A stretch of DNA of 64,000 nucleotides from Coriobacteriia bacterium (GTDB taxonomy: Bacteria; Actinomycetota; Coriobacteriia; Anaerosomatales; SLCP01), in contig JAUVXE010000002.1 in NCBI GenBank assembly GCA_030603745.1, positions 958 through 64,957 of the forward strand, written 5' to 3'. The position numbers and the translations under genes are program-made. Shown here piece after piece: positions 27,326 to 28,628 of this stretch; the stretch's first letter is position 1, and each line of letters begins with the position of its first letter. Under the pieces are notes generated by a model. The model had not been told where the DNA came from, did not search any database, and worked only from the letters and a program-made list of their open reading frames with translations.

Positions 27326-28330
27326 ATGGATCCGACCTTCGACACGGCGACCGCGGTTCCGGCGCTCCCGACCTCGCTCACCCGGCGAGACCGTCTCGGG
27401 GCGCTCCGCGTGCGCCTCGGAATCGGGCGCGACCGCTACCTGGTCGAGCCGGGGCTCTACCGCATCGGCGACCCCGACCGCTCCGCCCCCGTCCTGGTGA
27501 CGGCGAACTACAAGCTCACGGTCGACACCGTGCGCTCGAGCCTTGCGGGCCGGGACGTGTGGCTCCTCGTGCTCGACACCAAGGGCGTGAACGTCTGGTG
27601 CGCGGCGGGCAAGGGCACCTTCGGGACCGAGGAGCTGATCCTGCGGCTGCTCACCTCCGGCGTCCAGGAGCGGATCGACCACAAGACGCTCGTGCTGCCC
27701 CAGCTCGGAGCGCCGGGCGTGTCGGCACACACGGTCCGCGCGGCCACCGGCTTCCGCGTGCTCTACGGACCGGTCCGCATCGAGGACCTCCCGGAGTATC
27801 TCGATGCGGACCTGCGGGCGACCGAGGGGATGCGGCGGGTGCGATTCGGCATGCGGGACCGGTTCGTGGTGACGGGGGTCGAGCTCGCGGTGCTCTGGGA
27901 CCGCCGGGTCCTTGGCGCCGCGGTCGCGCTCTGCCTCGCGGCGCTCCTCGGCGTGCTGTCGTGGCCTGCCGCTCTACTCGCACTCGCCGCCGGGCTGACC
28001 GGGGTGCTCGCGGGAGGACTGCTCGTCCCGGTCGCGCTGCCGTGGGTCCCCGGCCGGACGTTCGCCGCGAAGGGCGCGCTCGCCGGCGCGCTCGCGGCGG
28101 CGGCACTCCTCGGCGTGGCCGGGACACGGGTCACGGTCGACGTCTGGGGCGGGGTCGCGCTCATGCTCGGCGTGACGAGCCTCGCCTCGTTCACCGCGAT
28201 GAACTACACCGGCTCGAGCACGTTCACCTCCCTCTCCGGCGTACTGTGGGAGATGCGGCGGGCCGTGCCGCTCCAGGTGACGGGCGCGGGACTCGCGCTC
28301 ATCGCGCTCGTGACCGCCGCGATCAGCTAG
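27326..28330 (+). CDS. hgcA: mercury-methylation corrinoid protein HgcA
   Basis: 334 aa. The N-terminal corrinoid-binding domain carries TKGVNVWCAAGKGTFGT, the N(V/I)WCA(A/G)GK cap-helix motif, with Cys at residue 92 (codon 27599..27601). The C-terminal half has about 5 TM helices. hgcB follows immediately. Confidence 0.9.
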   Translation: MDPTFDTATAVPALPTSLTRRDRLGALRVRLGIGRDRYLVEPGLYRIGDPDRSAPVLVTANYKLTVDTVRSSLAGRDVWLLVLDTKGVNVWCAAGKGTFGTEELILRLLTSGVQERIDHKTLVLPQLGAPGVSAHTVRAATGFRVLYGPVRIEDLPEYLDADLRATEGMRRVRFGMRDRFVVTGVELAVLWDRRVLGAAVALCLAALLGVLSWPAALLALAAGLTGVLAGGLLVPVALPWVPGRTFAAKGALAGALAAAALLGVAGTRVTVDVWGGVALMLGVTSLASFTAMNYTGSSTFTSLSGVLWEMRRAVPLQVTGAGLALIALVTAAIS

Positions 28331-28340
28331 GAGGGCCTGC

Positions 28341-28628
28341 GTGCCGGGACTGCGATACATCGACGACGTCGTGACGCTCGAGCTCGACCCCGGGGCGTGC
28401 ACCGGGTGCACGATGTGCGTGCAGGTCTGCCCGCACGGCGTGCTCGCGATGGAGGAGCGGCGCGCGCGGGTCGTCGACCGTGACGCGTGCATCGAGTGCG
28501 GGGCGTGCGTGCGCAACTGCCCGGCCGACGCGCTCAGCGTGACCCCGGGGGTGGGTTGCGCGGCCGCGATCATCAAGGGGTGGCTCACCGGCTCCGAGCC
28601 CACCTGCGGCCCGGACGGGTGCTGCTAG
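28341..28628 (+). CDS. hgcB: mercury-methylation 2[4Fe-4S] ferredoxin HgcB
   Basis: 95 aa. GTG follows AGGAGGG. Motifs: CTGCTMCVQVCP and CIECGACVRNCP, a lone Cys73 (GVGCAAA), and C-terminal ...CGPDGCC with Cys94-Cys95. Confidence 0.9.
   Translation: MPGLRYIDDVVTLELDPGACTGCTMCVQVCPHGVLAMEERRARVVDRDACIECGACVRNCPADALSVTPGVGCAAAIIKGWLTGSEPTCGPDGCC

Follow-up and report, generated by a model that had tools for sequence, protein, structure and literature searches.

The closest described relatives of the system treated here are the mercury methylation genes hgcA and hgcB of Pseudodesulfovibrio mercurii ND132 and those found in metagenome-assembled genomes of Coriobacteriia (OPB41/Anaerosomatales). 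For the P. mercurii enzyme, S-adenosylmethionine (SAM) is the methyl donor, the conserved cysteine is a Co-thiolate ligand, and C73, C94 and C95 of HgcB are essential (PMC11588087). Control of hgcAB transcription by ArsR was shown in ND132 (bioRxiv 10.1101/2022.10.17.512643), in a study in which the words operator and palindrome are absent. ArsR-like regulators associated with hgcAB have been described for Pseudodesulfovibrio and for 112 genomes of McDaniel et al. 2020 (PMC7438021). The same survey reported 17 hgcA-positive Actinobacteria, nine of them Coriobacteriia, all from the order OPB41, which has since been named Anaerosomatales and which has cultured, obligately anaerobic members. We describe here an hgcA-hgcB pair from a Coriobacteriia bacterium, located on 64,000 nt of contig JAUVXE010000002.1 (GCA_030603745.1, positions 958 to 64,957 of the forward strand). 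This whole stretch is referred to as the window.

We consider it highly likely that the locus is a bona fide HgcA-HgcB pair in the chromosome of a member of the Coriobacteriia related to Anaerosomatales, and that the mechanism and regulation proposed below explain it best. The pair consists of the following features.

27326..28330, plus strand: hgcA, ATG start, 334 aa, TAG stop (NF040863, Pfam CdhD, AlphaFold2, Foldseek)
28329..28334, plus strand: Shine-Dalgarno sequence AGGAGG of hgcB, read from the sequence, overlapping the hgcA stop
28341..28628, plus strand: hgcB, ferredoxin with two [4Fe-4S] clusters, GTG start, 95 aa (NF040864)

An earlier note on this DNA, made from the letters alone, had proposed the pair, and both open reading frames (ORFs) are present at the coordinates and in the order that it gave. 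It had also described an hgcB that starts with GTG 10 nt downstream of hgcA behind a Shine-Dalgarno (SD) sequence; the spacing is indeed 10 nt, with AGGAGG 6 nt 5′ of the GTG at 28341. The GC content at third codon positions (GC3) is 0.93-0.96 for hgcA and hgcB, as in the neighbouring genes, which is typical of real genes in a window of 71% GC. An intrinsic-terminator-like site was not found 3′ of hgcB.

The HgcA and HgcB proteins

The search with curated hidden Markov models that the earlier note had suggested was positive for both proteins. HgcA matches NCBIfam HgcA_corrinoid (NF040863) with 396.2 bits (E = 1e-118, profile positions 2-323 of 325), far above the curated equivalog cutoff of 275 bits, and HgcB matches HgcB_ferredoxin (NF040864) with 126.8 bits (E = 2e-37, profile 1-93 of 93; curated cutoff 99 bits). 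Pfam assigns only the generic CdhD and Fer4 domains to the two proteins.

The HgcA segment TKGVNVWCAAGKGTFGT contains NVWCAAGK at residues 89-96, with the cysteine at residue 92, and thus the cap-helix motif N(V/I)WCA(A/G)GK which had been recognized in the earlier note. When 51 HgcA sequences from Actinomycetota, Bacillota, Desulfobacterota, Bacteroidota, the Planctomycetes-Verrucomicrobia-Chlamydiae (PVC) phyla and one Methanomassiliicoccaceae archaeon are aligned, there is no variation at N89, V90, W91, C92, A94, G95 and K96. Several residues of the membrane domain are invariant as well. The second and last cysteine of HgcA, Cys203, is found in the membrane part.

The AlphaFold2 model of HgcA (52 sequences; predicted local distance difference test (pLDDT) 88.8, predicted template modelling score (pTM) 0.84) shows a Rossmann-like domain and, C-terminal to it, five long helices. 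These transmembrane (TM) helices (176-207, 213-240, 246-266, 273-292 and 303-333) agree with hydropathy and with the about five helices counted in the earlier note. When the model was compared to a PDB library with Foldseek, the best match was 9a0b (E = 2e-20, 45% identity, 325 columns), with large subunits of the corrinoid iron-sulfur protein (CFeSP) next. Entry 9a0b is a deposited HgcAB co-evolution model (computed, 2020) and not an experimental structure. A PDB sequence search with HgcA returned CFeSP only and no experimental HgcAB structure.

The CFeSP large subunit (AcsC/CdhE; 2h9a, 4c1n, 4djd) shares the cobalamin-binding Rossmann-like domain with HgcA (sequence E = 5e-12, Foldseek probability 1.0). 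It differs by a threonine in the cap helix, by the lack of a membrane domain, and by having an N-terminal [4Fe-4S] domain and a TIM barrel. In a phmmer alignment, Cys92 falls at the cap-helix threonine position of CFeSP 2h9a, and the alignment check on this cysteine, also proposed in the earlier note, supports its placement.

HgcB has two CxxCxxCxxxCP motifs, CTGCTMCVQVCP with Cys20/23/26/30 and CIECGACVRNCP with Cys50/53/56/60, and these eight cluster cysteines are invariant among 84 sequences. The other cysteines are Cys73, Cys89 (in EPTC) and the terminal pair Cys94-Cys95. Cys73 occurs in all 78 HgcB sequences which cover that position. The earlier note was right about both motifs, Cys73 and the terminal pair, but Cys73 is not the lone cysteine for which it was taken, as Cys89 is conserved in 75 of 78 homologs.

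The pair resembles HgcA and HgcB of P. mercurii ND132 in the two-gene order, the domain architecture, the cap-helix cysteine motif (Cys92 here, Cys93 in ND132) and the five TM helices of HgcA. The two cluster motifs, Cys73 and the C-terminal Cys-Cys of HgcB are likewise common to both, with the same numbering. The window differs from ND132 in that the host belongs to the Actinomycetota rather than the Desulfobacterota, in having 71% GC, in an mRNA that is probably leaderless, and in the position of its ArsR-type regulator, which is encoded on the opposite strand at a distance of about 9 kb while that of ND132 is upstream and co-transcribed.

Both protein termini vary among relatives. Most HgcAs of the Anaerosomatales type carry an N-terminal extension of about 25 aa, MSxCCGPxSCCG... 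(P0004-P0028; L001 2662..2740), which is absent from HgcA of the window, P0002 and P0003. The window has no possible upstream in-frame start, and an alternative hgcA start that would match the longer relatives was rejected since no possible start lies between the preceding in-frame stop and 27326. The HgcB tails differ within the clade: that of the window reads ...EPTCGPDGCC (28590..28625), that of L081 ...CGPDDDGCCCC, and those of L001, L083 and L085 ...EPTCGC without a terminal CC.

Proposed mechanism and native function

As the residues are conserved with the P. mercurii enzyme, catalysis and methyl donor can be proposed by analogy. HgcA would be a membrane-anchored corrinoid protein in which Cys92 provides the thiolate ligand for the cobalamin cobalt. 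Reduction of the bound corrinoid to Co(I) would be the task of the two [4Fe-4S] clusters of HgcB, and SAM would methylate Co(I) to CH3-Co(III). From there, the methyl group would pass to Hg(II), probably presented by Cys73 and Cys94/95 of HgcB, and CH3Hg+ would be released. The two genes would be co-transcribed from one promoter, with hgcB being translated from its own SD sequence.

It is conceivable, though we think it somewhat unlikely, that Hg methylation is only a side reaction of this true hgcAB pair, and that its native role is another corrinoid-dependent reaction, such as reductive dehalogenation of halomethanes or metal(loid)-linked methyl transfer. This would explain a control of the ArsR type rather than the MerR type. 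According to a preprint from 2026 (10.64898/2026.04.26.720869), HgcAB dechlorinates CCl4 when expressed heterologously, model methylators show dehalogenation that is linked to growth, and halomethane dehalogenation may be the activity for which HgcAB is selected. The ArsR of ND132 responds to arsenic and S-adenosylhomocysteine (bioRxiv 10.1101/2022.10.17.512643). In addition, hgcAB is located among housekeeping genes in a conserved block, and mer genes are not found nearby: no MerA or MerB family matched among the approximately 55 ORFs scanned, as the earlier note had observed for the window. However, the preprint is without peer review, and the window has neither dehalogenase accessory genes nor ars genes that would point to a specific substrate. 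Halomethane dehalogenation as the selected activity is compatible with the gene identity, and a native role of this kind does not contradict the capability for methylation.

Promoter, palindrome and the relocated arsR gene

The predicted regulatory features and the genes connected to them are listed below.

27291..27319, plus strand: predicted sigma-70-type hgcAB promoter, TTGACT-17-TATCCT, with the -10 box ending 6 nt before the ATG
27279..27294, no strand: palindrome TCAAACGTCCGTTTGA, perfect 7-2-7, 16 bp; predicted ArsR operator, sharing bases with the -35 box of the hgcA promoter
18529..18544, no strand: palindrome copy 2, abutting the TACAAT -10 box at 18523..18528; predicted autoregulatory operator
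18160..18516, minus strand: arsR-family regulator, 118 aa, Pfam HTH_5 with 64.8 bits; ortholog of the hgcA-adjacent ArsR in relatives
17966..18163, minus strand: zinc-ribbon ORF (CxxC...CPxCG), 65 aa, from translation; weak match to Pfam Zn_ribbon_8 (23 bits, below the gathering score)

The predicted hgcAB promoter is the only promoter-like site in 26900..29000 (0.0 are expected from shuffles), and its geometry recurs in the arsR promoters of relatives. Only 6 nt separate the end of its -10 box from the ATG, so that the hgcAB mRNA is probably leaderless. The same probably holds for the arsR mRNA, as the TACAAT box and the ATG of arsR are likewise 6 nt apart. Palindrome copy 2 is located 13 nt upstream of arsR.

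The usual arrangement is seen in the related loci L001, L003, L005, L083, L085 and L087, where arsR is found directly 5′ of hgcA and often overlaps it. More generally, an ArsR-family gene occurs at most 1.5 kb upstream of hgcA in 35 of the 85 hgcA loci examined. In the window, the 143 bp between the carbonic anhydrase gene and hgcA contain no ORF. The gene at 18160..18516 codes for the only significant ArsR homolog in the window and is separated from hgcA by 8.8 kb and seven genes, on the opposite strand, so that it is neither immediately upstream of hgcAB nor co-transcribed with it. It is inserted between the response regulator and metallophosphoesterase genes, a position at which relatives have only about 110-140 bp. 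L081 and L082 likewise have no arsR adjoining hgcA.

That this is nevertheless the regulator known from the neighbourhood of hgcA is indicated by its sequence, which is 68% identical to the hgcA-adjacent ArsR of L003 and 44-52% identical to those of L001 (52%), L085 (51%), L005 (45%) and L083. The cysteine pattern is common to all of them (CxC in helix alpha3, WL[HY]C, C-terminal CC). ArsR2 of ND132 (DND132_1054) also belongs to the ArsR/SmtB HTH_5 family, is cysteine-rich and is genetically associated with hgcAB, but it is co-transcribed with hgcAB and has a four-cysteine site (Cys47/49/86/88; bioRxiv 10.1101/2022.10.17.512643), whereas the unlinked regulator of the window has CVC in helix alpha3, one cysteine after the wing, and a C-terminal CC.

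The zinc-ribbon ORF is translationally coupled to arsR by a GTGA overlap and has GGAGGAG upstream. No homolog was found in the fetched hgcA loci, and it is uncertain whether this ORF belongs to the arsR/hgcAB system.

Both distant genes are preceded by the palindrome. TCAAACGTCCGTTTGA has exactly two copies in the window, while 0.08 are expected, and the identity between the arsR and hgcA palindrome sites extends over 20 contiguous bases, GCGTTCAAACGTCCGTTTGA. The palindrome, either perfect or with 1-3 mismatches and often as two tandem copies, is also found in the arsR-hgcAB promoters of L003, L005, L001, L083, L085 and L087, and it occurs 5′ of hgcA in L081/L082. A relaxed core, TCAAA-N6-TTTGA, has 12 matches in 1.34 Mb of fetched loci, and 6 of the 12 fall into the regions directly 5′ of arsR or hgcA, which make up 1.6% of the sequence (binomial p = 1.5e-8, with L081 and L082 being near-duplicates). 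A function as hairpin or terminator was considered and rejected, because a spacer of 2 nt is too short for a loop and because both copies are located before start codons, where they overlap with promoter elements.

Operators of ArsR/SmtB repressors are inverted repeats which resemble the 7-2-7 palindrome. We infer that the palindrome is an ArsR operator, and that arsR has been relocated together with a copy of its promoter-operator. ArsR would then repress its own gene and, in trans, hgcAB by means of the identical 16-bp palindrome which overlaps each promoter, and would be released by a thiophilic metal(loid) or another ligand at the conserved cysteines. On balance, we lean towards this control of hgcAB in trans by an unlinked ArsR-type repressor, with a 7-2-7 operator TCAAACG-NN-CGTTTGA that is conserved across the actinobacterial HgcA clade.

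It is unlikely, in our opinion, that the palindrome is a rearrangement remnant or the site of another regulator, with hgcAB being constitutive or otherwise controlled. Simple promoter copying at relocation would produce identical sequence around the palindrome, and about 20-25 nt are in fact identical at both sites; also, the ND132 study (bioRxiv 10.1101/2022.10.17.512643) defines no operator. However, the palindrome core has been kept in L003, L005, L001, L083, L085, L087 and L081 despite divergent flanks, always overlaps promoter elements, and, with just 2 nt between the arms of the 7-2-7 repeat, is unable to fold into a stable hairpin.

Host lineage and inheritance

The earlier note had taken the host for an actinobacterium and had suggested a classification by pur genes. 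PurL of the window is 87% identical to proteins of Coriobacteriia metagenome-assembled genomes (MAGs) and 78% identical to that of the cultured Anaerosoma tenue, which is a member of the Coriobacteriia, order Anaerosomatales. The actinobacterial assignment is thus upheld. The pur cluster (purH/N/M/F/L/Q/C, 375..13928) and the citrate synthase gene (37420..38958) are present as described in that note, while rRNA and ribosomal-protein markers are absent from the 64-kb window. The closest matches of HgcA and of the coenzyme A (CoA)-enzyme activase are from Coriobacteriia, Anaerosomatales or Actinomycetota MAGs, with up to 68% identity for HgcA, and only MAGs are found among the named matches in a search with the syntenic activase. 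The NCBI names of close homologs are 'mercury methylation corrinoid protein HgcA' of Actinomycetota, Anaerosomatales or Coriobacteriia bacterium. In a scan of a genome collection, HgcA from L001 was the best match (62% identity). The assignment of the host to the class Coriobacteriia is well supported, and within this class the host would be close to the obligately anaerobic order Anaerosomatales (formerly OPB41), unlike a classical high-GC aerobic actinomycete.

In a neighbour-joining (NJ) tree of 84 HgcA sequences, the window pairs with L081, and their neighbours are the Coriobacteriia/Anaerosomatales sequences from L001, L083 and L085. Outside of this clade, the next branches are those of L005 from the Coriobacteriia, L003 from Actinobacteria UBA2279, and L002, a MAG with the label Eubacteriales.

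The genomic context agrees with that. A block consisting of a Na/Ca exchanger, histidine kinase, response regulator, metallophosphoesterase, an unknown gene, spermidine synthase, a three-gene CoA-enzyme activase cluster and beta-carbonic anhydrase, followed by hgcA-hgcB on the opposite strand, is common to the window, L083, L085, L087 and the short L001. The OPB41/Anaerosomatales MAGs (L001, L083, L085, L087) thus share this neighbourhood with the window, as well as the HgcA clade (62-65% identity), the ArsR ortholog and the predicted palindromic operator. They differ in having a contiguous, overlapping arsR-hgcA-hgcB arrangement, an HgcA with N-terminal CC...CC, an HgcB that ends with CGC, and rubrerythrin-Fur-HisG downstream. 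In the window, by comparison, arsR has been relocated, the HgcA extension is missing, HgcB ends with CGPDGCC, and the downstream block (GAF histidine kinase, DUF454, YqeY and, later, citrate synthase) is that of L081/L082. HgcA from L081/L082 is the closest one with known genomic context (68% identity).

The region between hgcB and the GAF histidine kinase (28625..29796) contains two genes in the window, while the kinase directly follows hgcB in L081/L082. The extra genes are a membrane-protein ORF on the minus strand, which is 40% identical to a gene from L003, and a cupredoxin-like ORF (29374..29796).

The closest activase ortholog (78%) is from L086 (GCA_003563465.1, 8653..13108), where carbonic anhydrase, arsR and hgcAB are all absent beside the activase cluster. 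Among close relatives, hgcAB thus has a patchy distribution.

From GC content, synteny and the HgcA tree, hgcAB looks inherited within the Coriobacteriia lineage rather than recently imported. A recent horizontal transfer, in which case the actinobacterial context would say little about the lineage, is improbable in our judgement. It would fit the observations that incongruence between HgcAB and species phylogenies is widespread (PMC7438021), that the 'Eubacteriales' MAG L002 and the 'Clostridiales' MAG P0022 fall near the actinobacterial clade, and that L086 has the same activase cluster without hgcAB beside it. However, there is no compositional island, as the GC content is flat (0.709-0.721 around hgcAB, about 0.71 window-wide) and GC3 (0.93-0.96) resembles that of neighbouring genes. 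At least five genomes of the Coriobacteriia type have the flanking block in common, all of the nearest relatives of HgcA come from Actinomycetota, Coriobacteriia or Anaerosomatales, and mobile-element genes are not found adjacent to hgcAB.

Weighing the assignment

That the pair represents a non-methylating paralog, either of the CFeSP (AcsC/CdhD) type with an accompanying ferredoxin or derived by a split from the fused HgcAB-like protein, which has been shown not to methylate Hg, is rejected as highly improbable because of model scores, residues and architecture. Such a paralog would fit the matches of the N-terminal domain to Pfam CdhD and to CFeSP structures, as well as the considerable partial score for the fused HgcAB-like model. 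However, with 214 bits for the latter model (cutoff 285) and 74 bits for CFeSP gamma (cutoff 306), both alternatives stay under their curated cutoffs, whereas those of the HgcA and HgcB equivalogs are clearly exceeded. Moreover, CFeSP has a threonine at the position of the invariant Cys92, the five-helix membrane domain with conserved P235, P242, K249, T295, G296, E309 and M310 is specific for HgcA, and hgcA and hgcB are separate, unfused genes. This question was decided by the comparison of model scores, as the NJ tree of HgcA holds no CFeSP or fused-HgcAB outgroups.

Several points weigh against the assignment as a bona fide pair with the proposed mechanism and regulation. The identity to the model of the reference enzyme (9a0b) is only 45%, and HgcA is without the N-terminal Cys-rich extension that most Anaerosomatales-type HgcAs carry. 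The cap-helix residues 92-95 have a pLDDT below 50 in the AlphaFold2 model, which is expected because this cofactor-ligating loop has been modelled without cobalamin; the N-terminus is also of low confidence. There are no B12 genes in the window, and an Rfam scan of the whole window matched no family and thus no cobalamin riboswitch. The promoter architecture is not uniform, as the palindrome of L081 precedes an hgcA that is led by an SD sequence. The leaderless start and the operator function are predictions from sequence geometry and conservation. Finally, the literature searched holds no activity test of any actinobacterial HgcAB. On the other side, the models, the separation from fused HgcAB-like proteins and CFeSP, the invariant cysteines, the predicted fold and the gene adjacency all agree with the HgcA/HgcB identity that the earlier note had proposed.

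Other genes in the window

A Cys-rich ORF with a DUF1540 domain (94 aa, 26208..26492, minus strand) is located 0.8 kb from hgcA, with the activase cluster on one side and the carbonic anhydrase gene on the other, and has no counterpart in any fetched hgcA locus. A component of a CbiM-type Co/Ni energy-coupling factor (ECF) transporter (49119..49820) and an ATP-binding cassette (ABC) ATPase (50585..51391) adjoin a NikR gene (51426..51845, minus strand), which suggests uptake of nickel rather than cobalt. An ORF at 58575..59177 (plus strand) has weak cytochrome c7 and MtrC-like multihaem matches and adjoins a flavin reductase-like gene (57225..58565); it may be connected to the respiration with Fe(III) and sulfur that is known from cultured Anaerosomatales.

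A toxin with a PIN domain (10364..10777, minus strand) and an antitoxin of the ribbon-helix-helix (RHH)/CopG type (10774..11082, minus strand) are found within the purine cluster, between purL and purS/purQ. Two Ca2+/Na+ antiporter paralogs (14197..15165 and 39662..40609, both minus strand) are 25 kb apart.

Implications for mercury methylation in Coriobacteriia

The earlier note had implied that hgcAB would be new for this lineage. However, its occurrence in Coriobacteriia of the order OPB41 was published in 2020 (PMC7438021), and NCBI already labels close homologs as HgcA. As the lineage had already been reported to be hgcA-positive, the novelty falls while the annotation stands. The companion statement that cultured, verified methylators are scarce in the lineage fits our literature search, which gave no report of a tested actinobacterial methylator. 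A paper on Anaerosomatales isolates (cultured members are Anaerosoma tenue and Parvivirga) mentions neither mercury nor hgc, and a literature search for Anaerosomatales together with hgcA found nothing. The pair differs from the published pattern by a regulator that is unlinked and yet shares the predicted operator, by an HgcA without the Cys-rich extension, and by a different HgcB tail; the new detail among these is the regulator.

If the proposed regulation is true, the palindrome would be the first defined operator for an hgcAB regulator, and hgcAB loci which are scored as 'regulator-less' by adjacency could still belong to an ArsR regulon. With a split arrangement as found here, such cases will be missed by regulator screens that are based on adjacency. 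The short conserved palindrome provides a concrete and cheaply testable operator hypothesis for ArsR-type control of hgcAB.

Methylmercury production is predicted from hgcAB in metagenomes, and the Actinomycetota are among the phyla for which this prediction is without culture verification. The presence of an intact, conserved hgcAB pair in a chromosomal, lineage-typical context supports Coriobacteriia of the Anaerosomatales type as candidate methylators. Cultured members of the order make methylation testable, if any of them carry hgcAB.

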